A stretch of DNA of 64,000 nt from positions 50,325,378-50,389,377 of the forward strand of contig NC_086382.1 of the NCBI RefSeq assembly GCF_036588685.1, written 5' to 3'. Each line of letters opens with the position of its first letter. Position 1 is the first letter of the stretch. The position numbers and the translations under genes were made by a program. Under the pieces are notes generated by a model, which saw only the letters and a program-made list of their open reading frames with translations, searched no databases and was not told the DNA's origin. This stretch comes from Mytilus trossulus (lineage: Eukaryota). Positions 13,793 through 56,288 of this stretch are shown in pieces.

Positions 13793-13802
13793 GTAAGGAT
13801 TG

Positions 13803-14818: not shown

Positions 14819-15009
14819 GTAAGAATTTTTTATTATTAGTGGAGCAAAATTAACAAAAAATACAGCAGTACTGTTTGTTTTGCAGTTCTTCATCTTTTTG
14901 TTAATAAATAATCCTAAAATATCAATTTTAACTCTATCAAAATGATAAAAGAAATTGAATAGTTAGGAAATTCAGAATATATTGCAATGAAAATTACTGC
15001 TGAATATAT

Positions 15010-16484: not shown

Positions 16485-17180
16485 CTGTGCTACAAGACTG
16501 AGTGATATTGATAAAATGGAAAATATATACATAGTGCTGAGCTTTTATGGAACAATGACTTTCAGTCAACTATTGGAGCTTGAAGTGAAGTCATCAGGGG
16601 ATATGCCAAGTTACTCATAGTAGCACTTCAAAAAAGATCACAGAAAAATGAGATCATTGTCAGCCTTCTAAATGTCCCTCGCTGCAGTACAGTATGAGTG
16701 AATGGCTTGGCCTCAATCTGGTGGTGTTTCTAAATATTTTTGTATCAATAAAAGTGTTTGTTGACTGCTGAAAAATCAATTAAAATTATATTTAGCAATT
16801 TCTTTCTCTGTTTTTAATATGGACTCAATACCTACTACAAAAGTAAAGGTACTGATAAAACCAAAAGGGACAAAAGAAAAGCCAAACCCAGTAGTTTTGC
16901 TATAATTGTAGTCAACTGAGAAAATACATCAGTAATGAAATTTGCCCTCTTATATAACAACCAAGGGAACTAACTCCCATATTATTTACTACAATGGAAA
17001 TATCCTATTAATTAAAGTTACAATTGTTATGAGCTGATTATATATAAGTAACTTATAATGCATCATTTTACTAAAATTCTGCTTTATTTATCATTTCACT
17101 AACTTATAACTTGTAAACATTTTCTATTCTCTTATGTTGAATATTTTTAAATATTGAATTTGAATTCTGATAAACCAGTT

Positions 17181-18274
17181 TAGATTGAATGTCCTGTCTA
17201 TAAGGGTGTCCATCCATTTCAGATTGAATGTCCTGTCTAAGAGGGTGTCCATCCATTTCAAATTGAATGTCCTGTCTAAGAGGGTGTCCATCCATTTAAG
17301 ATTGAATGTCCTGTCTAAGAGGGTGAACATCCATTTCAGATTGAATGTCCTGTCTAAGAGGGTGTCCATCCATTTCAGATTGAATGTCCTGTCTATGAGG
17401 GTGTCCATCCATTTCAGATTGAATGTCCTGTCTAAGAGGGTGTCAATCCATTTAAGATTGAATGTCCTGTCTAAGAGGGTGTCCATCCATTTAAGATTGA
17501 ATGTCCTGTCTAAGAGGGTGTCCATCCATTTAAGATTGAATGTCCTGTCTAAGAGGGTGTCCATCCATTTAAGATTGAATGTCCTGTCTAAGAGGGTGAA
17601 CATCCATTTAAGATTGAATGTCCTGTCTAAGAGGGTGAACATCCATTTAAGATTGAATGTCCTGTCTAAGAGGGTGTCCATCCATTTCAGATTGAATGTC
17701 CTGTCTAAGAGGGTGTCCATCCATTTCAGATTGAATGTCCTGTCTAAGAGGGTGTCCATCCATTTCAGATTGAATGTCCTGTCTAAGAGGGTGTCCATCC
17801 ATTTAAGATTGAATGTCCTGTCTAAGAGGGTGTCCATCCATTTAAGATTGAATGTCCTGTCTAAGAGGGTGAACATCCATTTCAGATTGAATGTCCTGTC
17901 TAAGAGGGTGAACATCCATTTAAGATTGAATGTCCTGTCTATGAGGGTGTCCATCCATTTCAGATTGAATGTCCTGTCTAAGAGGGTGTCCATCCATTTT
18001 AGATTGAATGTCCTGTCTAAGAGGGTGTCCATCCATTTAAGATTGAATGTCCTGTATAAGAGGGTGTCCATCCATTTAAGATTGAATGTCCTGTCTAAGA
18101 GGGTAAACATCCATTTAAGATTGAATGTCCTGTCTATGAGGGTGTCCATCCATTTCAGATTGAATGTCCTGTCTAAGAGGGTGAACATCCATTTAAGATT
18201 GAATGTCCTGTCTATGAGGGTGTCCATCAATTTCAGATTGAATGTCCTGTCTATGAGGGTGTCCATCCATTTCT
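17181..18274. repeat. 39-bp minisatellite, ~28 copies (agattgaatgtcctgtctaagagggtgtccatccatttc), with two unit subtypes (gtgtccatccatttcag and gtgaacatccatttaag)
   Basis: Exact 39-nt periodicity (13 codons) explains the 392-aa (-) and 412-aa (+) ORFs, which are almost certainly non-coding. Confidence 0.9.
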
Positions 18275-20769: not shown

Positions 20770-21994
20770 GTAAGATTAACCTAGAATATGTTAACAGTTT
20801 TAATACGCTCATTTACAGGAAATACATATTATATATGGTAAAGTTAAACTGTTGTCCGCCCATCATCAACATGTTGGACATTAACTCAAAATTTCTTTAA
20901 CCAATTTGCATGAAACTGTAATGAATTGTTTATATCTGTTGACGTGAGCTCCCTTTTAATTTTGTTTTAATTTTGGATTTACATTTCCAAGTTATTTGGT
21001 GTGATTACATCAAAAAGGGGGATTTTCTAGTTTTTCGGATATTAACTCAAAATGGCTTTGAGCAGTTTTCTTGAAACTGTGGTGAATTGTTTATATCTAC
21101 TGATTGTAGCTCCCTTTTGATATTTATGCTCCCTTATTGGACAATAAATCAAAAGTTTTTTAAGTAGTTTTAATGAAACTTTGGTCACTGGTTTTTATGT
21201 ATTAAAGTAATCTCCCTTTATTTTTTTCCATGAAATTCAGATATGACATTGAGGAGTTTTGAAACTTTATTCTTTGAAAAAAAGCCCTCTATTGAAAAAT
21301 ATCACCACTCATATATTTAGTTGTTGTATATCAAAATTATTATGAGAATAAAATTAAAAATTTCTATGCACATTTTTAACTTAAAAAGTCTATGGAAAAT
21401 GTGAGGAGTTGTTAAAAAAAATCAAATGGAAGTTTTTCCAGTATTTCTTCTAAAATTTGTGTTTTTCTACACATGCCACATAGCTTACTTTGAATTGATA
21501 TCTAGAATACTTGGTGAAAGGTATACCTTATGTCATTTGGTCTCTGGTGGAGAGATGGCTCATTTGCAATCATGCACATTTTTAGCTCACCTGGCCTGAA
21601 GGGCCAAGTGAGCTTTTCCCATCACTTTGCGTCCGGCGTCCGGCGTCGTCTGTCGTCGTTGTTAACTTTTACAAAAATCTTCTCCTCTGAAACTACTGGG
21701 CCAAATCAAACCAAACTTGGCCACAATCAACATTGGGGTATCTAGTTCAAAAAATGTGTGGCGTGACCCGGTCAACCAACCAAGATGGCCGCCAGGGCTA
21801 AAAATAGAACATAGGGGTAAAATGCAGTTTTTGGCTTATAACTCAAAAACCAAAGCATTTAGAGCAAATCTGACATGGATTTAATATGTTTATCAGGTCA
21901 AGATCTATCTGCCCTGAAATTTTCAGATGAATCGGTCAATCGGTTGTTGGGTTGCTGCCCCTGAATTGGTAATTTTAAGGAAATTTTGCTGTTT

Positions 21995-23508
21995 TTATAC
22001 GACCGCAAATTTTGAAAAAATTTTCGTCGTATATTGCTATCACGTTGGCGTCGTCGTCGTCGTCGTCGTCGTCGTCCGAATACTTTTAGTTTTCGCACTC
22101 TAACTTTAGTAAAAGTGAATAGAAATCTAGGAAATTTTAACACAAGGTTTATGACCATAAAAGGAAGGCTGGTATTGATTTTGGGAGTTTTGGTCCCAAC
22201 ATTTTAGGAATTAGGGGCCAAAAAGGGCCCAAATAAGCATTTTCTTGGTTTTCGCACTATAACTTTAGTTAAAGTGAATAGAAATCAATGAAATTTAAAC
22301 ACAATGTTTATGACCACAAAAGGAAGGTTGGTATTGATTTTGGGAGTTTCGGTCCCAACAGTTTAGGAATTAGGGGCCAAAAAGGGACCCAAATAAGCAT
22401 TTTTCTTGGTTTTCGCACCATAGCGTTAGTATAAGTAAATAGAAATCTATGAAATTTAAACATAAGGTTTATGACTATAAAAGGAAGGTTGGTATTGATT
22501 TTGGGAGTTTTGGTCCCAACAGTTAAGGAAAAAGGGGCCCAAAGGGTCCAAAATTAAACTTTGTTTGATTTCATCAAAATTGAATAATTGGGGTTCTTTA
22601 ATATGCTGAATCTAACTGTGTATGTAGATTCTTAATTTTTGGTCCCGTTTTCAAATTGGTCTACATTAAGGTCCAAAGGGTCCAAAATTAAACTTAGTTT
22701 GATTTTAACAAAAATTGAAACCTTGGGGTTCTTTGATATGCTGAATCTAAAAATGTACTTAGATTTTTGATTATTGGTCCAGTTTTCAAGTTGGCCTAAA
22801 TCGAGGTCCAAAATTAAACATTGTTTGATTTCATCAAAAATTGAATAATTGGGGTTCTTTGATATGCCAAATCTAACTGTGTATGTAGATTCCTAATTTT
22901 TGGCCCAGTTTTAAAATTGGTCTAAATTAAAGTGCAAAGGGTCCAAAATTAAACAAAGTTTGATTTTAACAAAAATTAAATTCTTGGGCCTCTTTGATAT
23001 GCTGAATCTAAACATGTACTTAGATTTTTGATTATTGGCCCAGTTTTCAAGTTGGTCCAAATCAGGATCTAAAATTATTATATTAAGTATTGTGCAATAG
23101 CAAGTCTTTTCAATTGCACAGTATTGTGCAATGGCAAGAAATATCTAATTTCACAATATTGTGAAATAGCAAATTTTTTTTTAATTAAGAGTTATCTTTC
23201 TTTGTCCAGTATAGTAAGCAAGAAATATCTGCAAGAATTTTTTTTAATTGGAGTTATCTTTCTTTGTCCAGAATCAACTTAAATCTTTGTTATATACAAT
23301 ATACAATGTATATTCACTTTTTACTACCAACTGGTAAATTTAAATAATCTTTACCATTCAGTGATAACAAGCAGTTTTTTTACATCTTAATATTTTATGA
23401 TGTATTTAAATGAGTAGTAATTGTTGCAAACTCCATTAGAATATTTTAATTGAAATTAGTTTTGGAATAAGGGAAAGGGGGATGTGAATAAAAAATTGGG
23501 TTCAATTT
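21995..23508 (+). mobile_element. Family-1 satellite-bearing Helentron-like element, copy lacking the 3' terminus. It has a 5' ttatacgaccgcaaattttgaaaaaattttcgtcgtatattgctatcacg, a (CGT)n tract, a ~165-bp satellite in 4 copies, a ~125-bp satellite in 4 copies, and a 60-bp repeat block
   Basis: The 5' end is shared with 23509, 39494, 42113 and 53019. Internal arrays run 22080-22560 (unit tttagttttcgcactctaactttagtaaaagtgaatagaaatc...) and 22560-23060 (unit ggtccaaaattaaactttgtttgatttcatc...). The copy ends exactly where the next 5' terminus starts. Confidence 0.6.
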
Positions 23509-25423
23509 TTATACGACCGCAAATTTTGAAAAAAATTTCGTCGTATATTGCTATCACGTCGTCGTCGTCGTCCGAATACTTTTAGTTTTCGCACTCTAAC
23601 TTTAGTAAAAGTGAATAGAAATCTATGAAATTTTAACACAAGGTTTATGACCATAAAAGGAAGGCTGGTATTGATTTTGGGAGTTTTGGTCCCAATATTT
23701 TAGGAATTAGGGGCCAAAAAGGGCCCAAATAAGCATTTTCTTGGTTTTCGCACTATAACTTTAGTTTAAGTTAATAGAAATCTATGAAATTTTGACACAA
23801 GGTTTATGACCACAAAAGAAAGGATGGGATTGATTTTGGGAGTTTTGGTTTCAACTGTTTAGGAATTAGGGGCCAAAAAAGGGCCCAAATAAGCATTATT
23901 CTTGGTTTTCGCACTATAACTTTAGTTAAAGTAAATAGAAATCAATGAAATTTAAACACAATGTTTATGACCACAAAAGGAAGGTTGGTATTGATTTTGG
24001 GAGTTTCGGTCCCAACAGTTTAGGAATTAGGGGCCAAAAAGGGACCCAAATAAGCATTTTTCTTGGTTTCGCACCATAGCGTTAGTATAAGTAAATAGAA
24101 ATCTATGAAATTTAAACACAAGGTTTATGACTATAAAAGGAAGGTTGGTAATGATTTTGGGAGTTTTGGTCCCAACAGTTAAGGAAAAAGGGGCCCAAAG
24201 GGTCCAAAATTAAACTTTGTTTGATTTCATCAAAATTGAATAAATGGGGTTATTTAATATGCCGAATCTAACTGTGTATGTAGATTCTTAATTTTTGGTC
24301 CCGTTTTCAAATTGGTCTACATTAAGGTCCTAAGGGTCCAAAATTAAACTTAGTTTGATTTTAATAAAAATTGAAACCTTGGGGTTCTTTGATATGCTGA
24401 ATCTAAAAATGTACTTAGATTTTTGATTATTGGCCCAGTTTTCAAGTTGGCCCAAATCAAGGTCCAAAATTAAACATTGTTTGATTTCATCAAAAATTGA
24501 ATAATTGGGGTTCTTTGATATGCCAAATCTATTTGGTCCAGTTTAAAATTGGTCTAAATTAAAGTGCAAAGGGTCCAAAATTAAACTAAGTTTGATTTTA
24601 ACAAAAATCAAATTCTTGGGCCTCTTTGATATGCTGAATCTAAACATGTATTTAGATTTTTGATTATGGGCCCAGTTTTCAAGTTGGTCCAAATCAGGAT
24701 CTAAAATTATTATATTAAGTATTGTGCAATAGCAAGTCTTTTCAATTGCACAGTATTGTGCAATGGCAAGAAATATCTTATTTCACAATATTGTGAAATA
24801 GCAAATTTTTTTTAAATTAAGAGTTATCTTTCTTTGTCCAGTAAAGTAAGCAAGAAATATCTGCAAGAATTTTTTTTAATTGGAGTTATCTTTCTTTGTC
24901 CAGAATCAACTTAAATCTTCGTTATATACAATATACAATGTATATTCACTTTTTACTACCAACTGATAAATTTAAATAATCTTTACCATTCAGTGATAAC
25001 AAGCAGTTTTTTTTACATCTTAATATTTTATGATGTATTTAAATGAGTAGTAATTGTTGCAAACTCCATTAGAATATCTTAATTGAAATTAGTTTTGGAA
25101 TAAGGGAAAGGGGGATGTGATTAAAAAATTGGGTTCAATTTTTCTCATTTGAAATTTCATAAATAAAAAGAAAATTTCTTCAAACATTTTTTTGAGAGGA
25201 TTAATATTCAACAGCATAGTGAATTGCTCTAAGAGAAAACAAAAATTTTAAGTTCATTTGAATACATTCATTCTGTGTCAGAAACCTATGCTGTGTCAAC
25301 TATTTAATCACAATCCAAATTTAGAGCGGACTCCAGCTTGAATGTTGTGTCCATACTTGCCCCAACTGTTCAGGGTTCAACCTCTGCGGTCGTATAAAGC
25401 TACGCCCTGCGGAGCATCTGGTT
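23509..25423 (+). mobile_element. Family-1 Helentron-like element, full copy (5' tatacgaccgc ... 3' hairpin gctacgccctgcggagc + atCTGG + TT)
   Basis: 12-bp inverted sequences lie near both ends (tatacgaccgca and tgcggtcgtata). The 3' end is GCATCTGG followed by TT, as at every other copy. Confidence 0.6.
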
Positions 25424-28123
25424 GGTTTTTATCTTGAATATTATTATAGATAGAGATAAACTGTAAACAGCAATAATGTTCAGCAAAGTAAGATCTACAA
25501 ATAAGTCAACATGACCAAAATGGTCAGTTGACCCGTTTAGGAGTTATTGCCCTTTATAGTAAATTTTTAACCATTTTTCGTAAATTAAAGTAATCTTTTA
25601 CAAAAATCTTCTCCTCTGAAACTACTCGGCCAAGTTAATCCAAACTTGGCCACAATCATCTTTGGGGTATCTAGTTTTAAAAATGTGTGGCGTGACCTGG
25701 TCAACCAACCAAGATGGCCGCCACGGCTAAAAATAGAACATAGGGGTAAAATGCAGTTTTTGGCTTATAACTCAAAAACCAAAACCTTTTGAGGAAATCT
25801 GACATGAGATAAAAATGTTTATCAGGTCAAGATCTATCTGCCCTGAAATTTTCAGATGAATCAGTCAATTGGTTGTTGGGTTGCTGCTCCTGAATTGGTA
25901 ATTTTAAGGAAATTTTGCTGTTTTTGGTTTTTATCTTGAATATTATTATAGATAGAGATAAACTGTAAACAGCAATAATGTTCAACAAAGTATTATCTAC
26001 AAATAAGTCAACATGACCGAAATGGTCAGTTGACCCGTTTAGGAGTTATTGCCCTTTATAGTCAATTTTTAACCATTTTTTCTTAAATCTTAGTTATCTT
26101 TACAAAAATCTTCTCCTCTGAAACTACTGGGCCAAATTAATCCAAACTTGGCAACAATCATCTTTGGGGTATCTAGTTTAAAAAATGTGTGGCGTGACCA
26201 GGTCAACCAACCAAGATGGCCACAAAGGCTAAAAATAGAACATAGGGGTAAAATGCAGTTTTTGGCTTATAACTCAAAACCAAAGCATTTAGAGCAATCT
26301 GACTTGGGGTGAATTTGTTTATCAGATCAATATCTATCTGCCCTGTAATTGGAAGATGAATCTGACAACCTGTTGTTGGGTTGCTGCCCGTGAATCGGTA
26401 ATTTTAAGGAAATTTTGCTGTTTTTGGTTATTATTTTGAATATTATTATAGATAAAGATAAACTGTAAACAGCAATAATGTTCAGCAAAGTAGGATCTAT
26501 AAATAAGTCAACATGACCGAAATGGTCAATTGACCCCCTAAGGAGTTATTGTCCTTTATAGTCAATTTTTAACAATTTTCATAAAATTTGTAAATTTTTA
26601 ATTAACATTTCCACTGATACTACTGGGCCAATTTCATTATAGATAGAGATAATTGTAAGCAGCAAGACTGTTTAGTAAAGTAAGATTTAAAAACACATCA
26701 CCATCAACAAAACACAATTTTGTCATGAATTCATTTGCTTCCTTTGTTTAATGTTCACATATACCAAGGTGAGCGACACAGGCTCTTTAGAGCCTCTAGT
26801 TTTTTAATCTCTAAGGCGATCGGAAGTGTACATAATATACCAACTCAACAGATTTGTTTTAAATTTACATTTTGATTCTGCTTGTAAAAATACATCAGAA
26901 CATAAAATAAAAAAGGGGGTAACCGTTTTTGTTTTTCAGATACAAACTGTTGAAACTGACAGCTTGATACACCAGAAATACAATGGGTATATAGGGAAAA
27001 TCATAAAAACTGGCAGATATATTTTTACTTTATAATGATTTTCTTAATTTGTTGGTCAACAGAATTTTTTTTAATTCTAATTTCGATAAAAATAAATCGC
27101 GCACTCTGATGTCTTGACTCTGAGTTGCTATGGCAGTTGGGTAATAATTTGTACCATTTGAACAGACTAATTTGATAAAACAAATTGTTAGAATTTTAAA
27201 TTACGTGCATAAGATGAGTAACGCATACAGTCAAGTCACAGTAAAATTATTATTCATGCAAAGCCAATAATTTGGTAAGACATCTATGTGTGTCCACATA
27301 TGTATCTGTTACACTAGAGAAGGTGCTGATCCATGAAATAATAACACTTATTTTACTATCTTTTTAACTGAGTTGGTATTTGGAGTTATGTAAAAACTAC
27401 TCATGAACAAGATCACACATTTATACCTCAGGCTGTTTATTCATGTGTGAAGGGTTCCATAATAATCTAACTTTAACAGTTCAACAGAGAACTGATAGAT
27501 TGACCAGTGTTATTATCTCACTTCTGGATGTTATTCTGGTCGGGGATATTGTTTACAAAATGTTGTTTGAAGAAGCAGGTTTGTTTTATATTTGATAATT
27601 CAATTTATTCTTGAATTTTGAGTAGTGCATTTATTTATGGATATAGGTCTCATTCGTAATCTTTATGTAAAGATTAAATGTTGGTTTTCCTTTTTGAATT
27701 GAAGACTGTACTTTGAGCAATAATTTTTAACGTTTTATACATTGTGTCTTATTGACACTCATACAGGGGCAGATCCAGCAATTTATAAAAGGGGGGTCCT
27801 AACCCAGGACAAAGAGGGGATTCCAACCACATGTCATGATGATGTCCCCATACAAATTCATTGATCGTCAAAAAAGGGGGAAGGAGTTCCAACCCCCCCT
27901 CCCCACCCCACCTGGGATCAACCACTGCTCATACCACATCTTGTTTATATGAATATGTAGAGTTGATAGCTTTAGCTGTTTGAGAGTTAGACATTACTCC
28001 TCAAATTAGTCAGCAACTCCCATCAAGTACTCAATTGTCACTTAGAAGAGTAGGAATGCCCTTTATTGTCAAGCATCTAATCTCTGTTTTAAATATGTCT
28101 ACTGTCAAACTGGCCTTAATTTT

Positions 28124-30046
28124 TTATGACCACCAAAATTTTTGCTGTTGTATTTTTGTATCACATCATTGTCCGAAAAGACACTTAGTTTCCAGACAAT
28201 AACTTTGATTTTTAAAAGTGAATGGATCTCTATGAAATTTAAACACAAGGTTTGAAACCACAAAAGGAAAGCTTGGTTTGATTTTGAGGGTTAGGTTCCC
28301 AACAGTTTAGGAAATAAGGGTCTTCAAAGGGGTCCAAATAAACATTTTTATAGTTTCCAGACAGTAACTTCTGTGTAAGTGTATGGATGTTTCTGAAATT
28401 GTACTACAAGTTTCTATACCAAAATGGAAGGTTGGGATTGATTTTGGGGGTTATGGCCCTTACTGATTAGGAATAAGGGCCCACAAACAATACTTTTCTA
28501 ATGCTTTGTATAAATTGCTGAATTGTTGTCCAATTTAAATGGGGTGTTCTTGAGTTCTTGTGTTCTTTAATATGCTGAACTTAACAATGTATTAAGATTT
28601 GGATATTTAGCCCTGTTTTTAAGTTGGTTCACATTGAGGTCCAAAGGGTCCAAATTTAAACTTTGTTTGATTTCATCAAAAATTAAAGTTTTGGGGTTGT
28701 TTGATATGCTGAAAATAACCGTGTATTTCAATTTTTTATTTTTGGTCCCATATTTAAATTGGTCTACATTAAGGTCCAAAGGGTCCAAAATTAAACTTAG
28801 TTTGATTTTAACAAAAATTGAATTCTTTGGGTTCTTTGATATGCTGAATTCTAACATGTATTTAGATTTTTGATAATAGGCCTAGTTTTCAAATTGGTTC
28901 AAATCAGGGTCCAAATTAAACTTTGTTTGATTTCAACAAAAATTGAATGCATGAGGGTCTTTGATATGCTAGATCTAACCGTGTATTTAAATTTTTGATT
29001 TTAAGTTCTGTTTTCAAATAAGTCTACATTAAGGTCCATAGGGTTAAATATTAAATTTAGTTTGCCTTTAATAAAAATTGAATTTTTGAGGTTCTTTGAT
29101 ATGCTGAATCTAAACATGTATAAGTACCCGGCCACGTCCACTTTTATTTTTTGTCTATCTGATGAGTTAAGCCTTTTTCAACTGATTTTTATAGTATGTT
29201 CTTATGTTGTACTGTTATTCCACTGTCCCAGGTTAGGGGAGGGTTGGGATCCCGCTAACATGTTTAACCCCGCCACATTATTCATGTATGTGCCTGTCCC
29301 AAGTCAGGAGCCTGGAATTCAGTGGTTGTCGTTTGTTTATGTGTTACATATTTGTTTTTCGTTAATTTTTTTACATAAACAAGGCTGTTAGTTTTCTCGT
29401 TTGAATTGTTTTACATTGTCTTATTGGGGCCTTTTATAGCTGACTATATGCGGTATGGGCTTTGCTCATTGTTGAAGGCCGTATGGTGACCTATAATTGT
29501 TAATGTTTGTGTCATTTTGGTCTTTTGTAGATAGTTATCTCATTGGCAATCATACCACATCTTCTTTTTTATGTATTTAGATTTTTGATTATAGGCCCAG
29601 TTTTCAAGTAAGTTGAAATCGGGGTTAAAATTAATCTTTGTGTTATTTCAACAAAGATTGAATATATTGGGCTCTTTGATATGCTGAATTTAACCATGTA
29701 TTTAGATTTTTGATTTTTGGGCCCAGTTATTGAATTGGTTCACATTGAGGTCAAAAGGGTCCAAAATTTAACTTTATTTGATTTCATCAATAATTGAATT
29801 CTTGGCCTTCTCTGTTATGCTGAATCTAACCATGTATTTAGATTTAGGGTATTGGACAATAATAGGTAAAAGTCCAATATGAAATTTTACCACATTCATT
29901 CTGTGTCAGAAACCTATGCTGTGTCAAATATTTAATCAAAATCCAAATTTAGAGATGTATCAAGCTTAAATATAGTGTCCATACTTACCCCAACTGTTCA
30001 GGGTATCAACCTCTACGGTCCTATCAAGCTGTGCCATGCGGAGCAT
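28124..30046 (+). mobile_element. Older, diverged family-1 element copy carrying a SINE insertion at 29123-29572
   Basis: A diverged 5' region (tttatgaccaccaaaatttttgctgttgtatttttgtatcacatc...), degenerate copies of both satellites, and the 3' terminal region at 29880-30046. Confidence 0.5.
29123..29572 (-). mobile_element. ~450-bp SINE of the 'gaagatgtggtatgattgccaatgagacaac' family. The opposite end is tRNA-related (gggttgggatcccgctaacatgtttaacccc). It is flanked by a short target duplication (atgtat)
   Basis: It interrupts a satellite unit, leaving atgtat on both sides. Homologous copies lie at 31321-31650, with fragments at 5600-5700, 46792-46990, 50268-50400 and 51303-51400. Confidence 0.55.
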
Positions 30047-39493: not shown

Positions 39494-42112
39494 TTATACG
39501 ACCGCAAAATTTGAAAAAATTTTCGTCGTATATTGCTATCACGTTGGCGTCGTCGTCGTAGTCATTGTCCGAATACTTTTAGTTTTCGCACTCTAACTTT
39601 AGTAAAAGTGAATAGAAATCTATGAAATTATAACACAAGGTTTATGACCACAAAAGGAAGGATGGGATTGATTTTGGGAGTTTTGGTCCCAATATTTTAG
39701 GAATAAGGGGCCAAAATGGGCCCAAATAAGCATTTTCTTGGTTTTCGCACTATAACTTTAGTTTAAGCATGGAAGTATTATATTGACAGGAACTCCAATG
39801 AAAAATTAGCACATTCCCCTCCCACTGATTTCTTTAAGAAAATAAAAGGTTCCGACTCAGTTTGTCAAGTACGTGATAACTCCTTTGTGGGGTATCTGCG
39901 ATGCCGACTTCGCCTGTTCTTTTAACTGAATCTAGTCTCATCACGTGATTTGATATCGATGGTCTTATCTACCTACCAATGTAAATATACACGGAAACTC
40001 CCGTGGTTATTTGTGAATCGCCACATGGATAACAACACCTGTGTCCGTTCAATAGATAAAGAACAAAGCTGAAAAGATCGAAAAAATCGGTCCACATTTA
40101 ACAAAATAACATAAGAAAATCAACTGCATTCGGAAAGAGGGCAAGCTTATTTTTAGTTTTGTTGAGTATGTTTAAATCCCTGGAACTTGGAAATCGGGAA
40201 GTATCTGATTATGAAAATTACATGATTCTGAAGTAGAGTGTTTGCAGAAAATAATGGAATGCTCATGTAGTGTGCCAGATATTGCCAGATAACTCAAATT
40301 TTAAGTTAAAGATTGAAAACTTTTATCTAGTGTATCACAAATATTTATGGTTTTCTCTATCGTAAAATATCGTAAAATGTTTTTAACTTATTTATCAAAT
40401 ATGTTTTAAAGACTAAAAGAGGTTAATAATTATGTGATGACCTCTACATAGCAATATCAGGTTACAAGACATGCAGATGAATTGTTACACCTTTTATGGT
40501 AATTCCAAAACCCTAAACATTCAACCTAGTCCGAGATTACTTTGACGTCTGACAGATTTATTTTTACAGATAACTTTAATATATCTGAATACATTTAAAG
40601 AGATCACTATGATGGGCCCTAAGCAGTTTAATTTTTTTTCTATCATGGAAACCAAATTAGAATTTATTTATGTGTTTAAAAGCTTAACCGTTCTCAGTGG
40701 CGGATCCAGAAATTTTCATAAGTGGGGGCCCACTGACTGACCTAAGAGGGGGCCCACTCCAGTCACACTTCAATGATTCCCTATAAGCAACCAAATTTTT
40801 TCCCCAAAAGGGGGGGCCTGGCCCCCCCCCCCCCCCCCCCCCCCCTAAATCTGCCTCTGGTTCTGAAACATCTTACACCGTATGCTAATCAATTTATGTT
40901 TCTGTTTCTTGTTTAATTGCATGAAATATTTGCCATTGGACTTTCAGTAAACAATATATCAAAATATTTGATATTTTTTCGGATCAGAGCTCTTTAATCC
41001 TGTACCCCCACCCGGCCAACTTTTACTTTTGTTGGAAATTCTTTCATTAAAATATTTGTCAAAGTTAGCAGTAAAACGCGATAATAATTACTGATAAAAA
41101 CTTTTCTGTTCACTTTACATGAGAATTTTATGATTATAACAGTTACACGTGTTTAGCCAACGGCCTTCTCGTGAATAAAAATCTTACTTTTTTAAAATTG
41201 ATTTCAACTTAAACTGAAATCTTTTTACTCTTCAGTTACTCTTCAGTTTTTTAGTTTTTCTTTTTTTTAATTTGGTGAAAACAGTCGCGGGGATTTCATT
41301 TGATTTCTTTTTATTTGTTTTTAAGCAGCAATACCCGTAAAAACTGACATATTTGTCATTCACATGGTCGATAAATGTCATTTCCTTGACAATTAAGTAC
41401 ACATCCGGGTATTTCGGTATGTTCCGTAATTACGATCATTCACGAGGTTCCAAAAATTTGATCGGAACCCATGCATCCATTGACATGTTGAGTTAATTAA
41501 CAGATACTTAACGATTTTGCGGCATCACACTATAAACGTTTGAAGTCCGCTTGTTGGAGTTCCTGTCAATATAATACTTCCATGGTTTAAGTGAATAGAA
41601 ATCTATGAAATTCTAACACAAGGTTTATGACCACAAAAGGAAGGTTGGGATTGATTTTGGGAGTTTTTGTTCTAACTGTTTAGGAATAAAGGGCCAAAAA
41701 AGGGCCCAAATAAGCATTATTCTTGGTTTTTGCACAATAACTTTAGTAAAAGTGAATAGAAATCAATGAAATTTAAACACAAGGTTTATGAACACAAAAG
41801 GAAGGTTGGGATTGATTTTGGGAGTTTTGGTCCCAACAGTTTGGGAACAAGGGACCCAAAGGGTCCAAAACTAAACTTTGTTTGATTTCATCAAAAATTG
41901 AATAATTGGGGTTCTTTGATATGCCGAATCTAACTGTGTATGTAGATTTTTAATTTTTGGTCCCGTTTTCAAATTGGTCTACATTAAGGTCCAAAGGGTC
42001 CAAAATTAAACTTAGTTTGATTTTAACAAAAATTGAATCTTTGGGGTTCTTTGATATGCTGAATCTAAAAATGTACTTAGATTTTTTATTATTGGCCCAG
42101 TTTTCAAGATTT
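39494..42112 (+). mobile_element. Family-1 Helentron-like copy lacking the 3' end, with a TIR transposon nested at 39768-41584
   Basis: The 5' end ttatacgaccgcaaaatttg lies at 39494. The satellite-1 unit is interrupted at gtttaag and resumes at 41585. The copy ends where the next 5' terminus (42113) starts. Confidence 0.55.
39768..41584. mobile_element. Non-autonomous DNA transposon (1.8 kb) with perfect 31-bp TIRs CATGGAAGTATTATATTGACAGGAACTCCAA and a 7-bp TSD GTTTAAG. The TIR length and TSD size are P-element-like, but the superfamily is unassigned
   Basis: The TIRs at 39768-39798 and 41554-41584 are exact reverse complements. The duplicated gtttaag matches the uninterrupted satellite unit elsewhere (…ctttagtttaagttaatag…). 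No ORF lies inside. The poly(C) repeat 40690-40870 is carried internally. Confidence 0.7.
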
Positions 42113-44913
42113 TTATACGACCGCAAAATTTGAAAAAAATTTCGTCGTATATTGCTATCACGTTGGGGTCGTCGTCTGCGTCATCGTCGTCGTCAGCGTC
42201 TGAATACTTTTAGTTTTCGCACTCTAACTTAAGTAAAAGTGAATAGAAATCTATGAAATTTTAAAACAAGGTTTATGACCACAAAAGAAAGGTTGGGATT
42301 GATTTTGGGAGGTTTGGTCCCAACATTTTAGGAATTGGGGGCCAAAAAGGGCCCAAATTAGCATTTTCTTGGTTTTCGCACTATAACTGTAGTTTTAGTT
42401 AATAGAAATCTATGAAATTTTGACACAAGGTTTATGACGACAAATGAAAGGTTGGGATTGATTTTGGGAATTTTGGTTTCAACAATTAAGGAATTAGGGG
42501 CCAAAAAAGGGCCCAAATAAGCATTATTCTTGGTTTTCGCACAATAACTTTAGTTTAAGTAAATAGAAATCAATGAAATTTAAACACAATGTTTATGACC
42601 ACAAAAACAAATATCTAATTACACAATATTGTGAAATAGCAAGGTTTTTTTTAATTAGAGTTATCTTTCTTTGTCCAGAATAGTAAGCAAGAAATATCTA
42701 ATTGCACAATATTGTGCAATTGCAAGAATTTTTTTTAATTGGAGTTATCTTTCTTTGTCCAGAATCAACTTAAATCTTTGTTATATACAATATACAATGT
42801 ATATTCACTTTTTACTACCAACTGATAAATTAAAATAATCTTTACCATTCAGTGATCACAAGCAGTTTTTAGCTCACCTGGCCCGAAGGGCCAAGTGAGC
42901 TTTTCTCATCACTTGGCGTCCGGCGTCGTCGTCCGTCGTCGTCGTCCGGCGTTAACTTTTACAAAAATCTTCTCCTCTGAAACTACTAGGCCAAATTTAA
43001 CCAAACTTGGCCACAATCATCATTGGGGTATCTAGTTTAAAAATTGTGTCCGGTGACCCCGCCAACTAACCAAGATGGCCGCCATGGCTATAAATAGAAC
43101 ATAGGGGTAAAATGCAGTTTTTGGCTTATAACTCAAAAACCAAAGCATTTAGGGCAAATCTGACATGGGGTAATATTGTTAATCAAGTTAAGATCTATCT
43201 GCCCTGAAATTTTCAGATGAATCTGACATTCCGTTGTTAGGTTGCTGCCCCTGAATTGGTAATTTTAAGGAAATTTTGTTGTTTTTGGTTATTATCTTGA
43301 ATATTATTTCAGATAGAGATAAACTGTAAAAGGCAATAATGTTCAGCAAAGTAAGATCTACAAATAAGTCAACATGACCAAAATGATCAGTTGACCACTT
43401 TAGGAGTTATTGCCCTTTATAGTCAATTTTTAACCATTTTTCATAAATCTTAGTAATCTTTTAGAAAAATCTTCTCCTCTGAAACTGCTGGGCCAAATTA
43501 TTTGAAACTTGGCCACAATCATCATTGGGGTATCTAGTTTAAAAATTGTGTCCGGTGACCCCGCCAACTAACCAAAATGACCGCCATGGCTATAAATAGA
43601 ACATAGGGGTAAAATGCAGTTTTTGGCTTATAACTCAAAAACCAAAGCATTTAGAGCAAATCTGACACGAGTAAAATTGTTAATCAGGTGAAGATCTATC
43701 TGCCCTGAAATTTTCAGATGAATTGGACAACCTGTGTTTGGGTTGCAGCCCCTGAATTGGTAATTTTAAGGAAATTTTGCTGTTTTTGGTTATTATATTG
43801 AATATTATTATAGATATAGGTAAACTGTAAACAGCAATAATGTTCAGCAAGGTCAGATTTACAAATAAGTCAACATGACCAAAATGGTCAGTTGACCTCT
43901 TTAGGAGTAATTGCCCTTTAAAGTCAATTTTAACCATTTTTCGTAAATTTTATATATCTTTTACTAAAATCTTCTTCTCTGAAACTGCTGTGCCAAATTG
44001 ATCCAAACTTGGCCACAATCATCTTTGGGGTTTCTTGTTTAAAAAATGTGTCCGGTGACCTGGCCATCAAACCAAGATGGTCGCCACGTCTAAAAATAGA
44101 ACATAGGGGTAAAATGCAGTTTTTGGCTTATAACTCAAAAACCAAATAATTTAGAGAAAATCTGACATGTAGTAAAATTGTTAATCAGGTCAAGATCTAT
44201 CTGCCCTGAAATTTTCAGATGAATTGGACTACCTGTTTTTGGGTTGCGGCCCCTGAATTGGTAATTTTAAGGAAATTTTGCTGTTTTTGGTTATTATATT
44301 GAATATTATTAAAGATATAGGTAAACTGTAAACAGCAATAATGTTCAGGAAAGTAAGATCTACAAATAAGTCAACATGAACGAAATGGTCAATTGACCCC
44401 TGTAGGAGTTATTGACCTTTGTAGTCAATTTTCAATCTGCTTCCTTTGTTTAATATTCACATAGACCAAGGTGAGCGACACAGGCTCTTTAGAGCCTCTA
44501 GTTTTACATCTTAATATTTTATGATGTATTTAAATGAGTAGTTATTGTTGCAAACTCCATTAGAAATTTTAATTGAGATTAGTTTTGGAATAAGGGAAAG
44601 GGGGATGTGATTAAAAAAATTGGGTTCAATTTTCTCATTTGAAATTTCATAAATAAAAAGAAAATTTCTTCAAACATTTTTTTGAGAGGATTAATATTCA
44701 ACAGCATAGTGAATTGCTGTAAGAGAAAACCAAAATTTTAAGTTCATTAGAACACATTCATTCTGTGTCAGAAACCTATGCTGTGTCAACTATTTAATCA
44801 CAATCCAAATTTAGAGCTGAATCCAGCTTGAATGTTGTGTCCATACTTGCCCCAACCATTTCGGTTTCAACTTCTGCGGTCGTATAAAGCTACGCCCTGA
44901 GGAGCATCTGGTT
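42113..44913 (+). mobile_element. Family-1 Helentron-like element copy with a family-2 element nested at 42871-44501
   Basis: 5' terminus at 42113 and 3' ...ctgcggtcgtataaagctacgccctgaggagcatctgg+tt at 44913. The family-2 insert sits between cagttttt and ttttacatc, which is continuous in other copies. Confidence 0.6.
42871..44501 (+). mobile_element. Family-2 Helentron-like element (nested), with ~4 internal ~370-bp units
   Basis: 5' hairpin agctcacctggcccgaagggccaagtgagc and 3' ggtgagcgacacaggctctttagagcctctag+tt. Confidence 0.65.
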
Positions 44914-46152
44914 TATTATTGGCCCAGTTTTCAAGTTGGTCCAAATCAGGGTCCAAAATTTAACTTTGTTTGATTTCATCAAAAATTGAATAATTGGGGT
45001 TCTTTGATATGCGAAATCCAACTGTGTTAGTAGATTCTTAATTTTTGGTCCCGTTTTCAAATTGGTCTTCATTAAGGTCCAAAGGGTCCAAATTTAAACT
45101 AAGTTTGATTTTAACAAAAATTAAATTCTTGGGCTTCTTTGATATGCTGAATCTAAACATTACTTAGATTTTTGATTATGGCAAAGTTTTCAAGTTGGTC
45201 CAAATCAGGATTGAAAATTATTATATTAAGTATTGTGCAATAGCAAGAAATTTTCAATTGCACAGTATTCAGCAATAGCAAGAAATCTTCAATTGTACAG
45301 TATTGTGCAATAGCAAGAAATTTTCAATTGCACAGTATTGTTCAATAGCAAGAAATCTTCAATTGACAGTATTGGGCAATAGGAAGAAATATCTAATTTC
45401 ACAATATTGTGCAATAGCAATCAATTTTCAATTGAAGTTATCTTTCTTTGTCCAGAATAAATATTTGTGCAATAGCAAGATATTTTCAATTGACAGTATT
45501 GCGCAATAGCAAGAAATATATAATTTCACAATATTATGCAATAGCAATCAATTTTCAATTGGAGTTATCTTTCTTTGTCCAGAATAGATATTTGTGCAAA
45601 AGCAAGATATTTTCAATATTCTTTGTAAATCTTAGTTATCTTTCTTTGTCCAGAATAGTAGTTGAATCAACTCAAATCATTGTTTTATACAATAATCAAT
45701 GTATTTTCACCATTACTACCAACTGATAAATTAAAACAATCTTTACCATTCAGTGATAACAAGCACTTTTTTTTTACATTTTTATATTTTATGATGTATT
45801 TAAATGAGCAGTTATTGTTGCAAACTCCATTAGAAATTTGAATTGAGATCAGTTTTGGAATAAGGGAAAGTTTTTCTCATTTCAGATTTCATAAATAAAT
45901 ATAAAATTTCTTCAAATATTTTTTTGAGAGGATTTTTATTCAACAGCATAGTGAATTGCTCAAAGGCAAATTATTTTTTTAAGTTCATTAGACCACATTC
46001 ATTCTGTGTCAGAAACCTATGCTGTGTCAACTATTTAATCACAATCAAAATTTAGAGCTGAATCCAGCTTGAATGTTGTGTCCATACTTTCCTCAACCGT
46101 TCAGAGTTCAACTTCTGCGGTCATATAAAGCTGCGCCCTGCGAAGCATCTGG
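44914..46152 (+). mobile_element. 5'-truncated family-1 element copy (satellite-2 units, a 60-bp tattgtgcaatagcaag repeat block, and the 3' terminus)
   Basis: It starts inside satellite 2 directly after the previous 3' end and finishes with ...gcgaagcatctgg+tt at 46152. Confidence 0.5.
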
Positions 46153-52469: not shown

Positions 52470-53018
52470 CGTATCTTTCTTGGGGTGAGGTAGCAGCCAT
52501 GATTATAGGTGTCAATTTATAACATCTCTCTCCTGGGGTGAGGTAGCAGCCAAGATCTTAGATGTTGCCTAGTCACATCTTTAATACTGATCTTCTGTCA
52601 TTGATTGAAAATGGTTATGCAAAACAAAATAAAAATTGATGCAATAGGATAGAATTGGGGTTGTACCTGCATCGTCTTTATCCTGTAAGGCATAACAATT
52701 GTTAACTGTGAGAATTTATTTTCATCATATCATTTACAATCAGGGATCAAATATACAACTTTAATAACATTTAATAGATTATTTATTATAATGAGATTGA
52801 TATTTTGTTTTACATGAGGCTACACATTTGTATTTCCTTATCTATTTACAATTTAGTGATAACAATAATGTGATAATTAGTTCAGGTGATATTGTCCCGA
52901 AGAAGTAGTAAAACACTGCTGTTGTTGTATATCTGATTGTAGAATACACTTAATGTTAATGATCAAAATGAAAAATATGTTGCAGATATTGGTTAAATGA
53001 TATAATTTTTATACGACC

Positions 53019-53061
53019 GCAAATTTTGAAAAAATTTTCGTCGTATATTGCTATCACGTTG

Positions 53062-53094
<33 letters not shown>

Positions 53095-54539
53095 GTCGTC
53101 GTCGTCGTCGACGTCGTCGTCCGAATACTTTTAGTTTTCGCACTCTAACTTTAGTAAAAGTGAATAGAAATCTATGAAATTTTAACACAAGGTTTATGAC
53201 CATAAAAGGAAGCCTGGTATTGATTTTGGGAGTTTTGGTCCCAACATTTTAGGAATTAGGGGCCAAAAAGGGCCCAAATAAGCAATTTCTTGGTTTTCGC
53301 ACTATAACTTTAGTTTAAGTTAATAGAAATCTATGAAATTTCGACACAAGGTTGATGACCACAAAAGAAAGGTTGGGATTGATTTTGGGAGTTTTGGTTT
53401 CAACAGTTTAGGAATTAGGTGCCAAAAAAGGGCCCAAATAAGCATTATTCTTAGTTTTCGCACAATAACTTTAGTTAAAGTAAATAGAAATCAATGAAAT
53501 TTAAACACAATGTTTATGGCCACATAAGGAAGGTTGGTATTGATTTTGGGAGTTTTGGTCCCAACAGTTAAGGAAAAAGGGGCCCAAAGGGTCCAAAATT
53601 AAACTTTGTTTGATTTCATCAAAATTGAATAATTGGGGTTCTTTAATATGCCGAATCTAACTGTGTATGTAGGTTCTTAATTTTTGGTCCAGTTTTAAAA
53701 TTGGTCTAAATTAAAGTGCAAAGGGTCCAAAATTAAACTAAGTTTGATTTTAACAAAAATTAAATTCTTGGGCCTCTTTGATATGCTGAATCTAAACATG
53801 TACTTAGATTTTTGATTATGGGCCCAGTTTTCAAGTTGGTCCAAATCAGGATCTAAAATTATTATATTAAGTATTGTGCAATAGCAAGTCTTTTCAATTG
53901 CGCACAGTATTGTGCAATGGCAAGAAATATCTAATTTCACAATATTGTGAAATTGCAAATTTTTTTTTAATTAAGAGTTATCTTTCTTTGTCCAGTATAG
54001 TAAGCAAGAAATATCTGCAAGAATTTTTTTTAATTGGAGTTATCTTTCTTTGTCCAGAATCAACTTAAATCTTTGTTATATACAATATACAATGTATATT
54101 CACTTTTTACTACCAACTGATAAATTTAAATAATCTTTACCATTCAGTGATAACAAGCAGTTTTTTTACATCTTAATATTTTATGATGTATTTAAATGAG
54201 TAGTAATTGTTGCAAACTCCATTAGAATATTTTAATTGAAGTTAGTTTTGGAATAAGGGAAAGGGGGATGTGATTAAAAAATTGGGTTCAATTTTTCTCA
54301 TTTGAAATTTCATAAATAAAAAGAAAATTTCTTCAAACATTTTTTTGAGAGGATTAATATTCAACAGCATAGTGAATTGCTCTTAGAGAAAACAAAAATT
54401 TTAAGTTCATTTGAATACATTCATTCTGTGTCAGAAACCTATGCTGTGTCAACTATTTAATCACAATCCAAATTTAGAGCGGAATCCAGCTTGAATGTTG
54501 TGTCAATACTTGCCCCAACCGTTCAGGGTTCAACCTCTT
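53019..54539 (+). mobile_element. Family-1 Helentron-like copy with a long (CGT)n tract (~75 nt), two satellites and a 60-bp repeat block. Its 3' terminus is missing, replaced by the junction to the next copy
   Basis: 5' tatacgaccgcaaattttg at 53019. At 54535 the sequence ggttcaacctct runs directly into (tcg)n of the following copy, skipping the 3' hairpin and 5' terminus. Confidence 0.6.
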
Positions 54540-56288
54540 CGTCGTCGTCGTCGTCGTCAGTCGTCGTCGTCGTCCGAATACTTTTAGTTTTCGCACTCTA
54601 ACTTTAGTAAAAGTGAATAGAAATCTATGAAATTTTAACACAAGGTTTATGACCATAAAAGGAAGCCTGGTATTGATTTTGGGAGTTTTGGTCCCAACAT
54701 TTTAGGAATTAGGGGCCAAAAAGGGCCCAAATAAGCAATTTCTTGGTTTTCGCACTATAACTTTAGTTTAAGTTAATAGAAATCTATGAAATTTCGACAC
54801 AAGGTTGATGACCACAAAAGAAAGGTTGGGATTGATTTTGGGAGTTTTGGTTTCAACAGTTTAGGAATTAGGGGCCAAAAAAGGGCCCAAATAAGCATTA
54901 TTCTTAGTTTTCGCACAATAACTTTAGTTAAAGTAAATAGAAATCAATGAAATTTAAACACAATGTTTATGGCCACATAAGGAAGGTTGGTATTGATTTT
55001 GGGAGTTTTGGTCCCAACAGTTAAGGAAAAAGGGGCCCAAAGGGTCCAAAATTAAACTTTGTTTGATTTCATCAAAATTGAATAATTGGGGTTCTTTAAT
55101 ATGCCGAATCTAACTGTGTATGTAGGTTCTTAATTTTTGGTCCCATTTTCAAATTGGTCTACATTAAGGTCCAAAGGGTCCAAAATTAAACTTAGTTTGA
55201 TTTTAACAAAAATTGAAACCTTGGGGTTCTTTGATATGCTGAATCTAAAAATGTACTTAGATTTTTGATTATTGGCCCAGTTTTCAAGTTGGCCCAAATC
55301 GAGGTCCAAAATTAAACATAGTTTGATTTCATCAAAAATTGAATAATTGGGGTTCTTTGATATGCCAAATCTAACTGTGTATGTAGATTCTTAATTTTTG
55401 GTCCAGTTTTAAAATTGGTCTAAATTAAAGTGCAAAGGGTCCAAAATTAAACTAAGTTTGATTTTAACAAAAATTAAATTCTTGGGCCTCTTTGATATGC
55501 TGAATCTAAACATGTACTTAGATTTTTGATTATGGGCCCAGTTTTCAAGTTGGTCCAAATCAGGATCTAAAATTATTATATTAAGTATTGTGCAATAGCA
55601 AGTCTTTTCAATTGCGCACAGTATTGTGCAATGGCAAGAAATATCTAATTTCACAATATTGTGAAATTGCAAATTTTTTTTTAATTAAGAGTTATCTTTC
55701 TTTGTCCAGTATAGTAAGCAAGAAATATCTGCAAGAATTTTTTTTAATTGGAGTTATCTTTCTTTGTCCAGAATCAACTTAAATCTTTGTTATATACAAT
55801 ATACAATGTATATTCACTTTTTACTACCAACTGATAAATTTAAATAATCTTTACCATTCAGTGATAACAAGCAGTTTTTTTACATCTTAATATTTTATGA
55901 TGTATTTAAATGAGTAGTAATTGTTGCAAACTCCATTAGAATATTTTAATTGAAGTTAGTTTTGGAATAAGGGAAAGGGGGATGTGATTAAAAAATTGGG
56001 TTCAATTTTTCTCATTTGAAATTTCATAAAGAAAAAGAAAATTTCTTCAAACATTTTTTTGAGAGGATTAATATTCAACAGCATAGTGAATTGCTCTTAG
56101 AGAAAACAAAAATTTTAAGTTCATTTGAATACATTCATTCTGTGTCAGAAACCTATGCTGTGTCAACTATTTAATCACAATCCAAATTTAGAGCGGAATC
56201 CAGCTTGAATGTTGTGTCAATACTTGCCCCAACCGTTCAGGGTTCAACCTCTGCGGTCGTATAAAGCTACGCCCTGCGGAGCATCTGG
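54540..56288 (+). mobile_element. Family-1 Helentron-like copy, near-identical to 53100-54539, with an intact 3' end (...ctgcggtcgtataaagctacgccctgcggagcatctgg+tt)
   Basis: Identical internal ORFs (53695-53958 equals 55409-55672, and 53874-54068 equals 55588-55782) show a very recent tandem duplication. Confidence 0.6.

Follow-up and report, generated by a model that had tools for sequence, protein, structure and literature searches.

A truncated and a complete copy of a satellite-carrying Helentron-type element joined head to tail in Mytilus trossulus

Within the 64,000-nucleotide stretch of Mytilus trossulus DNA analysed here (the window), two copies of one repeat family, one truncated at its 3′ end and one complete, are joined in the same orientation at 21996-25421 (composite 1). 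The joined copies most likely represent a known kind of element behaving in a known way, and not a new mechanism. The family (family 1) is a ~1.9-kb non-autonomous, satellite-carrying, non-coding Helentron-type rolling-circle element (HINE). On balance, the best explanation for the composite is insertion of one copy into a T run of another, followed by remobilisation or by collapse of the duplicated tail. The features on which this account is built are listed in the table.

From its 5′ end, family 1 consists of a T string, a 12-nt subterminal inverted repeat (subTIR), a hairpin partner, a (CGT)n tract, satellite 1 (sat1), satellite 2 (sat2), 35-bp repeats and a unique region, which is followed by the 3′ subTIR, a small hairpin, ATCTGG and then TT. 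The conserved 5′ end and the (CGT)n tracts, both described in an earlier sequence-only reading, were confirmed: the 5′ motif TATACGACCGCAAATTTTG occurs on the plus strand at 21996, 23510 and 53010 without mismatch and at 39495 and 42114 with one mismatch (0 matches expected in shuffled sequence), and its reverse complement closely precedes the 3′ end at 25378, 44868 and 56245. The 5′ subTIR, TATACGACCGCA, is preceded by a TTTT string, and TGCGGTCGTATA, the perfect 12-nt complement of that repeat, begins 37 nt short of where the terminal ATCTGG ends; the pair is present in all three complete young copies and in contigs L001 and L003. Lying 17 nt downstream of the 5′ subTIR, with (CGT)n next, the hairpin partner TCGTCGTATA folds with it at -9.2 kcal/mol (z -3.1). 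A palindrome (GCTACGC-CCT-GCGGAGC), conserved among copies and located 6 nt from the end, precedes ATCTGG and TT as described earlier, with a stem of 6 pairs and one A.G mismatch where 7 clean pairs had been claimed; taken alone, this 3′ hairpin is weak (z -1.1). Two satellite arrays occupy the centre of the element, as had been read, with measured periods of 159-161 bp in the first and 126-135 bp in the second, which can also be read as a 261-bp dimer, in place of the approximate values of ~165 and ~125 bp. The longest ORF inside the element is 50 aa, no Rep/helicase ORF was found among window ORFs of at least 130 aa, and the window yielded no tRNA genes.

This anatomy is that of HINEs such as DINE-1 of Drosophila, HINE-Mo of mites and Cg_HINE of the Pacific oyster, in which subTIRs of 11-15 bp lie 2-4 nt from the 5′ end and a few tens of bp from the 3′ end; all hallmarks given in the two articles describing them are present, which bears out the earlier assignment to satellite-carrying, non-autonomous Helentron-type elements as in bivalves (PMC4067079, PMC7492417). 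Family 1 and the HINEs are alike in their subTIRs, the hairpin partner beside the 5′ subTIR, a microsatellite following the left flank, either one array or two successive arrays of satellite-like repeats (~140-180 bp), a 3′ palindrome between subTIR and end, and T strings at both boundaries. Both are non-coding and insert at oligo-T or TT without duplication, often into other transposons. Unlike the known HINEs, family 1 has flank and satellite sequences specific to this genome and a third, short block of 35-bp repeats. It is the terminal structure of the element that suggests a rolling-circle mechanism. Three HINE-like families occur within the window.

Table. Features of the window that bear on composite 1 and on the other family-1 copies (a slash marks a breakpoint)
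Feature	Position	Strand	Details
Family-2 HINE, host of composite 1	21584..26799	+	5′ AGCTCACCTGG subTIR and hairpin partner; (GTCC/GTCGTC)n microsatellite; ~500-bp tandem repeat array; 3′ end GGTGAGCGAC, AGGCTCTTTAGAGCCT hairpin, CTAG
TTTT at 5′ boundary of composite 1	21992..21995	+	Target T run or the element's own T string
Copy 1a, 3′-truncated	21996..23509	+	1514 bp; subTIR 21996-22007; IR partner 22024-22033; (CGT)9 22049-22076; sat1 monomers A, C, D 22089-22552; sat2 22539-23077; 35-bp repeats 23086-23179; then unique post-satellite region to 23509
Junction 1	23506..23510	+	...GGGTTCAATTTT/TATACGACC
Copy 1b, complete	23510..25421	+	1912 bp; four sat1 monomers A-D 23585-24208; sat2 24198-24709; post-satellite region 24710-25142; 280-bp tail 25144-25421
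Copy 1b 3′ subTIR	25385..25396	+	TGCGGTCGTATA; perfect 12-nt reverse complement of 5′ subTIR
Copy 1b 3′ palindrome	25399..25415	+	ATCTGG 25416-25421; TT 25422-25423
Old family-1 copy (2a + 2c), twice interrupted	39495..46152	+	Own 3′ end ..GCATCTGG at 46152
Unrelated 1.8-kb TIR transposon	39768..41584	.	Nested in sat1 of old copy
Copy 2b, family-1 variant without sat2	42114..44911	+	In old copy at T run AGATTTT/TTATTATTGG
Family-2 HINE nested in 2b	42871..44501	+	At AGCAGTTTTTTTACATC
Composite 3	53010..56288	+	3a 53010-54545; 3b 54546-56288

Family 1 enters T runs without target-site duplication. T runs adjoin all 10 observed 5′ ends, every junction 5′ terminus is complete with its T string included, and paralogous empty sites exist for two insertions. 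For composite 1, these sites read GCTGTTTTTGGTT, the change upon insertion being from GCTGTTTTTGG to GCTGTTTT(element)TTGG, and the joined flanks can be aligned with over 10 paralogous 500-bp monomers that lack an interruption, leaving the T count uncertain by 1 nt. A clean paralogous empty site is also available for the family-2 HINE within copy 2b; the window has none for copy B, composite 3 or the old copy at 39495. Independent insertions at position GAAATTTTGCTGTTTT/T of the family-2 500-bp monomer, one in the window and one in metagenome contig L010, mark it as an insertion hot spot. One exception to the absence of duplication is copy 2b, which is flanked by a 22-28 bp direct target duplication; this is unexpected for a HINE-type element and weighs against the explanation favoured here.

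Composite 1 is located within the first 500-bp monomer of a family-2 HINE, whose 5′ hairpin folds at -12.3 kcal/mol (z -4.3) and whose 3′ palindrome has a perfect 6-bp stem. Copy 1a ends exactly at a T5 run, at the counterpart of 25143 in copy 1b (T5 run 25139-25143), where intact copies read GGGTTCAATTTTTCTC; its last 280 bp are absent, and the intact 5′ end of 1b begins directly after it, at 23509/23510. The partners at this junction have only TTTT in common. A plain nested insertion is ruled out here, since host 500-bp monomer and not the tail of 1a follows after 25423. The two copies are 1.8-2.7% diverged, 1a is without sat1 monomer B, and microsatellite length and left-flank variants also differ between them. 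They have no common derived substitution, each being nearer to metagenome copies than to the other, and their private substitutions (9 in 1a and 13 in 1b) form a star-like pattern that favours neither copy as the older and is compatible with a sister as well as a non-sister relationship.

The sequence-only reading had treated three places as equivalent head-to-tail junctions; the junction at 23509/23510 is as it was claimed, and the other two are of different kinds. The boundary at 42113/42114 is a plain nested insertion because the outer copy, thought to be without a 3′ terminus, resumes at 44912, its missing 3′ part (44912-46152) being found after copy 2b. Copy 2b within the old copy is thus direct proof of same-orientation insertion of family 1 into family 1. 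The family-2 HINE within 2b has an uninterrupted homologue of its insertion site at 23370-23400, and the unrelated transposon in the same old copy is bounded by terminal inverted repeats of ~29 bp (CATGGAAGTATTATATTGACAGGAACTCC), with GTTTAAG as its 7-bp target-site duplication. Nesting is a frequent event in the window. The third place (~54545) belongs to composite 3, which starts at 53010, not at 53019 as first given, and is best read as one element with a near-complete internal tandem duplication. Here, 3a retains 250 of the last 280 bases and runs to ...CAACCTCT, then straight into the (TCG)n microsatellite of 3b (CAACCTCT/TCGTCG...), and the 5′ terminus that had been placed at 54540 is absent. 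The halves 3a and 3b are 100% identical over 434 bp and 99-100% identical in their sat1 monomers, and they have in common a C/D-hybrid monomer and a microsatellite interrupted by TCAG.

Neither of the two mechanisms offered earlier for such junctions agrees with these structures. Read-through of a terminator would keep the first copy's 3′ terminus and is ruled out because that terminus is missing, the first copy retaining no terminator at all. Recombination between satellites is rejected because no breakpoint is in satellite register; the breakpoints join a T run to a 5′ terminus at two junctions and a 3′ tail to a microsatellite at the third.

In a search of metagenomes, viral contigs and prokaryotic genomes, close relatives of family 1 were found only in marine/environmental metagenome contigs, and the family-1 termini gave 0 matches in viral contigs and 0 in prokaryotic genomes. 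The metagenome copy in contig L001 is 96% identical to copy 1b over its full length, and the contig holds a second, independent composite of a truncated plus a full copy. Its outer copy ends at a different T run (T8), with the junction ...GCAAGAATTTT/TATACG, and the 92 bases after the full copy are without a match to family 1. The 21-mer across junction 1 gave 0 matches in metagenomes, where only 4 contigs carry the 5′ end. A literature search with the terminus strings returned irrelevant matches only, and no published string matched.

With respect to the origin of composite 1, we lean, without strong conviction, toward self-insertion into a T run followed by remobilisation or tail collapse. 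All three self-junctions lie at runs of at least five Ts (chance ~5e-5, given that such runs make up 3.7% of possible breakpoints), and this favours self-insertion. The inner T string and subTIR are complete at the T5 run and there is a single 3′ end, as in composites of the Chellapan 2016 type, and the same self-insertion model has already been put forward for Helitrons that combine several 5′ termini with a single 3′ terminus (PMC5148889). As a first step, copy 1b would have entered the T5 run near position 1630 of 1a in the same orientation, which would place a complete 5′ terminus directly after ...CAATTTT. This may have been followed by either of two events: (a) the chimera moved as a unit by rolling-circle transposition beginning at the outer 5′ end and finishing at the 3′ terminus encountered first, that of the inner copy, and landed in the T run of a family-2 HINE monomer, or (b) the inner and outer 280-bp tails, which would be adjacent direct repeats after nesting, merged by unequal recombination. 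No progenitor nest retaining the outer 280-bp tail was found. Remobilisation is unproven and inseparable from tail collapse, since no second genomic copy with junction 1 was found and junction-spanning ORFs are not on record in exact-ORF look-ups (which returned contigs for 2 of 12). Against self-insertion, the outer copy is not visibly older by its private substitutions, and the star-like pattern means that a single-event duplication from a master-like source would also fit.

An alternative that we consider unlikely is that a circle with its 3′ terminator region deleted gave rise to a concatemer, through replication round the circle or a template switch to the 5′ end, and that the truncated and the full copy were integrated in a single event. 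This resembles the model of Xiong et al. 2016 as summarised in PMC12628747, in which truncated Helitron arrays of plant centromeres likewise have multiple 5′ ends, a single 3′ end and units without terminators. The 3′ TT and the 5′ TTTT would adjoin in such a circle, a microhomology deletion from the T5 run to the circle junction would also yield ...CAATTTT/TATACG, the private substitutions of 1a and 1b are similar in number, and near-dimeric sister structures do occur in family 1, as composite 3 illustrates. However, the plant arrays are described there as having several to hundreds of units with one common breakpoint, ascribed to rolling-circle amplification, whereas here there is one truncated unit per locus and no array, L001 and the window have different breakpoints, and the halves do not look like sisters, 1a and 1b being structurally unlike (monomer B, microsatellite length, left flank) and neither of them the other's closest relative. 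For the T-run deletion, the far end would also have to coincide exactly with the circle junction (about 1 in 35 T runs) in two independent events, one in the window and one in L001, and direct nesting within family 1 is observed at 42114.

Less probable still is an in-situ tandem duplication of positions 1-1630, in which slippage or unequal exchange would have paired the boundary TTTT with the internal T5. Composite 3 is best read in this way, though its end points differ, and T runs are found at both end points of junction 1. Such an event would require the left end to be the boundary run, among ~35 runs of at least four Ts, twice independently (window and L001), and the divergence and structural unlikeness of 1a and 1b contrast with the near-100% identity of 3a and 3b.

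We give even less weight to two separate insertions into the same target T run, with 1b arriving first and a 3′-truncated 1a then inserting at T/T just upstream of it. Each copy's 5′ boundary does recreate a T run, the hot spot shared with L010 shows that one monomer position can be struck independently, and dimers arising from insertion-site preference are documented for other transposons; yet 1a would have had to end prematurely, exactly at an internal T run and without the 3′ hairpin, and L001 would require a second such premature end. An assembly error, whether a false join or a false duplication, is very improbable even though the region is extremely repetitive and near-identical units such as 3a and 3b are where assemblers err: the many differences between 1a and 1b, monomer content among them, mean that they are not one collapsed or duplicated sequence, their junction partners have only TTTT in common, and the independent metagenome assembly of L001 has the same type of structure.

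In its proposed origin, composite 1 resembles FoHeli of Fusarium (PMC5148889, Fig. 7): there, too, a full copy with one 3′ end comes after a partial 5′ copy, and the identical route was proposed, in which self-insertion is succeeded by excision that begins at the leftmost 5′ terminus and ends at the first 3′ terminus. The duplicated 5′ part of FoHeli is usually <200 bp, whereas that of composite 1, at 1.5 kb, makes up 79% of the element and includes whole satellite arrays. Composite 1 also differs from FoHeli in that its breakpoints are attributable to the T-run target preference of the element.

The window therefore offers a clean small-scale example of satellite-carrying rolling-circle elements piling into one another: families 1 and 2 each host a copy of the other, one family-1 copy hosts another, and the composites carry two sets of satellite arrays. 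If composites are mobile, the satellite load per new site would be doubled at each transposition, and such doubling is one plausible way in which short dispersed arrays could grow into longer satellites. A stronger version, in which self-insertion, followed by mobilisation of everything between the outer 5′ end and the first 3′ end, is a regular, iterable growth route that stacks ~1.5-kb satellite units and seeds higher-order satellite repeats, while two HINE families reciprocally target fixed hot spots, is possible but doubtful. The overall picture accords with published ideas and leaves them unchanged; its main practical value lies in repeat annotation here, through the consensus ends, the T-run targets and the positional identity of sat1 monomers A-D.

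Family 1 also recalls the pearl/MgE elements of bivalves in its succession of flank, microsatellite, ~160-bp core repeats and flank (Gaffney 2003 and Kourtidis 2006, cited in PMC7492417 and PMC3879986). HSP70-like exons are located at 13.3-14.9 kb of the window; the best hits of the HSP70-like ORF, at about 70% identity, are spread over many phyla. HSP70 introns of Mytilus galloprovincialis are reported to contain MgE alongside satellites of ~169, 260 and 70 bp, which resemble the 160-bp, 261-bp and 35/69-bp repeats of family 1.

Two copies of family 1, a ~1.9-kb non-autonomous Helentron-type element (HINE), lie in the same orientation at 21995-25423, each opening with TATACGACCGCAAATTTTG after a TTTT string. 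Five + strand occurrences of the motif were counted in the window against none expected by chance, which bears out the conserved 5' end that the sequence-only reading had described together with a (CGT)n tract. The second copy (1b) closes with ...CTCTGCGGTCGTATAAAGCTACGCCCTGCGGAGCATCTGG and TT, an end that recurs at 44911 and 56288 and, more diverged, at 182, 30046, and 46152. The first copy (1a) ends at the position matching 25143 of 1b and thus lacks the final 280 bp. At 23509/23510 (junction 1), a copy without a 3' terminus is directly followed by the 5' terminus of the next, exactly as had been claimed.

Features of the window and their coordinates
Feature	Position	Strand	Remarks
Copy 1a	21996-23509	+	3' end missing
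Copy 1b	23510-25421	+	TT after its end
Solo family-1 copy	28127-30046		older, diverged
Old family-1 copy	39495-46152		contains copy 2b
Copy 2b	42114-44911		
TIR transposon, 1.8 kb	39768-41584		non-autonomous, unrelated; ~29-bp terminal inverted repeats CATGGAAGTATTATATTGACAGGAACTCC; 7-bp target-site duplication GTTTAAG
Family-2 HINE, five copies	15012-~16100, 21584-26799, 36836-38097, 42871-44501, 48783-49573		~500-bp tandem repeat
Third HINE-like element	~35664-36664		GGGCCCCGACT with partner AGTCGGGGC
HSP70-like ORF fragments	13285-13965, 14290-14853	+	
Minisatellite arrays	3720-5123, 17175-18272		

The first 12 nt of the element (TATACGACCGCA) recur near the 3' end as their perfect reverse complement, TGCGGTCGTATA, and the 5' motif forms a hairpin (-9.2 kcal/mol, z -3.1) with TCGTCGTATA, 17 nt downstream of it. 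There follow the (CGT)n microsatellite, an array of 159-161-bp monomers (sat1), an array of 126-135-bp monomers (satellite 2) that can also be read as a 261-bp dimer, a short 35-bp repeat block, and a ~700-bp unique stretch. Beyond the 3' subterminal inverted repeat lies a small hairpin, its stem made of 6 bp and one mismatch, which is weak alone (z -1.1). Both satellites and the hairpin, with its ATCTGG-type end and TT, had been recognized before, although with monomers of ~165 and ~125 bp and a 7-bp stem. The sat1 monomers are positionally orthologous among copies (A, B, C, and D in 1b and in metagenome contigs L001 and L003; A, C, and D in 1a), and no ORF of >50 aa was found in the element. 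Family 1 passed every structural test for the layout of HINEs, the non-autonomous partners of Helentrons (PMC4067079, PMC7492417); the elements are real, and their Helentron-type assignment is correct. The oyster Cg_HINE shares these modules, two arrays in succession among them, and likewise uses a T-rich target, makes no target-site duplication, and inserts into other repeats (PMC7492417). Complex loci of truncated, tandemized, and nested Helitron parts are also on record in Crassostrea gigas; the composite structure is accounted for by published models and belongs to a known kind of element. The solo copy (72-87% identity) has degenerate termini, 5' TATGACCACCAAAA and 3' ...GCATTTTATT. In the old copy, the 35-bp block at 45229-45617 reaches ~10 copies (periods 35, 69, and 104) versus 2.7 in young copies, a third internal repeat that is growing into an array.

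Composite 1 (1a and 1b) lies within one ~500-bp tandem repeat monomer, and when it is cut out in silico, the joined flanks align unbroken to >10 other monomers of the window. Comparison of the empty site GCTGTTTTTGGTT with the filled site GCTGTTTT-element-TTGGTT, ambiguous by only one T, therefore identifies a T run as the target, and these paralogous empty sites reveal no target-site duplication. A T run precedes 10/10 family-1 5' ends in the window and metagenome contigs. A second HINE family (family 2) has the 500-bp repeats as its central array, with AGCTCACCTGG and a hairpin partner at the 5' end, then a (GTCC/GTCGTC)n microsatellite, and GGTGAGCGAC with a AGGCTCTTTAGAGCCT hairpin at the 3' end. 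Nesting of the two families is reciprocal: the family-2 copy at 42871-44501 sits in a family-1 copy at AGCAGTTTTTTTACATC, a site present unbroken in 1a. Contig L010 (JGI 3300060426, Ga0591026_0122597; 1-1267), compared with window 21926-21995 and 44218-44290, carries a family-1 copy at the exact 500-bp-monomer position of composite 1 (GAAATTTTGCTGTTTT/TATACG). Its flank fits another monomer variant, empty in the window at ~44287, and its element, with four sat1 monomers, is nearest those of contigs L001 and L007, not 1a; the shared position points to an insertion hot spot rather than a copied locus.

The breakpoint of junction 1 coincides with a T5 run of intact copies (CAATTTTTCTC). L001 holds a second composite, in which the outer copy breaks at another T run, a T8, and the full copy after it is 96% identical to 1b; the 92 contig bases past that copy show no match to the element. 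All family-1-in-family-1 junctions (3/3: junction 1, junction 2, and L001) fall at runs of at least five Ts, and since such runs are only 3.7% of possible breakpoints, this would occur by chance at ~5e-5. The inner 5' terminus is complete at all three. Breakpoints and termini together most likely mark transposase-mediated insertion into a copy already in place, and not the terminator read-through or satellite recombination proposed earlier, which was not supported. One copy would have inserted into a T run of another, after which either (i) the chimera was mobilized as a unit running from the outer 5' end up to whichever 3' terminus came first, a route put forward for Helitrons of Fusarium that have more than one 5' terminus (PMC5148889), or (ii) the two adjacent 280-bp tails collapsed via unequal recombination. 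The junction 1 sequence was not found elsewhere in a very small searchable sample.

Rolling-circle amplification from a truncated circle, the explanation summarized in PMC12628747 for plant arrays that have several 5' ends but only one 3' end, is possible but disfavored here: only a single unit is truncated, the breakpoint is not the same at different loci, and 1a and 1b are unlike in monomer content and flank variants. Nor do 1a and 1b have any derived substitution in common; each is nearer to metagenome copies than to the other. With 9 and 13 private changes, respectively, the substitution pattern is star-like and would fit a single-event duplication as well. Less probable explanations are an in-situ duplication mediated by T runs and two separate insertions at a single target. 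Misassembly is unlikely for composite 1 because its halves are distinguishable and L001, an independent assembly, has the same kind of structure.

The three junctions, previously regarded as equivalent, are different structures, and only the first is as described. At junction 2 (42113/42114), the outer older copy, 83-93% identical to young copies, breaks off in satellite 2, gives way to 2b, and picks up again in satellite 2 at 44912 before reaching its own 3' end at 46152; this is a nested insertion. TATTATTGGCCCAGTTTTCAAG stands on both sides of 2b (42090-42113 and 44912-44935), where 22-28 bp of the target are duplicated in direct orientation, which is unexpected for an element making no target-site duplication. 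The TIR transposon, which has a poly-C tract near 40826-40846, sits in a sat1 monomer of the same old copy. At junction 3 (54545/54546), no 5' terminus is present: copy 3a includes 250 of the last 280 bases, to CAACCTCT, and then passes into the (TCG)n microsatellite of 3b. Since 3a and 3b are near-identical (100% across 434 bp; sat1 monomers 99-100%) and have in common a derived C/D-hybrid monomer and a TCAG that interrupts the microsatellite in both, composite 3 is best read as one element in which ~1.5 kb was recently duplicated internally in tandem. It may instead be a dimer that lost ~85 bp around the junction, and misassembly is possible.

The third HINE-like element encloses a (GTCC)n microsatellite and 4.7 copies of a 171-bp repeat, with GCGGGGCCC and then the palindrome GAGATGGCTTCCATCTC on its 3' side. 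The two HSP70-like ORF fragments (Pfam PF00012 relatives, ~70% identity to animal HSP70s) encode nearly the same substrate-binding-domain segment, which points to exon duplication or to HSP70-like genes in tandem adjoining a family-2 HINE. Family-1 repeat lengths and these nearby exons are reminiscent of MgE, an element of Mytilus galloprovincialis. The minisatellite arrays are long and homogeneous, with 23 copies of 61-bp units (95% matches) and 28 copies of 39-bp units (94% matches). The 61-bp array has - strand ORFs up to 243 aa, and the 39-bp array, its unit length being divisible by 3, keeps long ORFs open on the two strands (392 and 412 aa).
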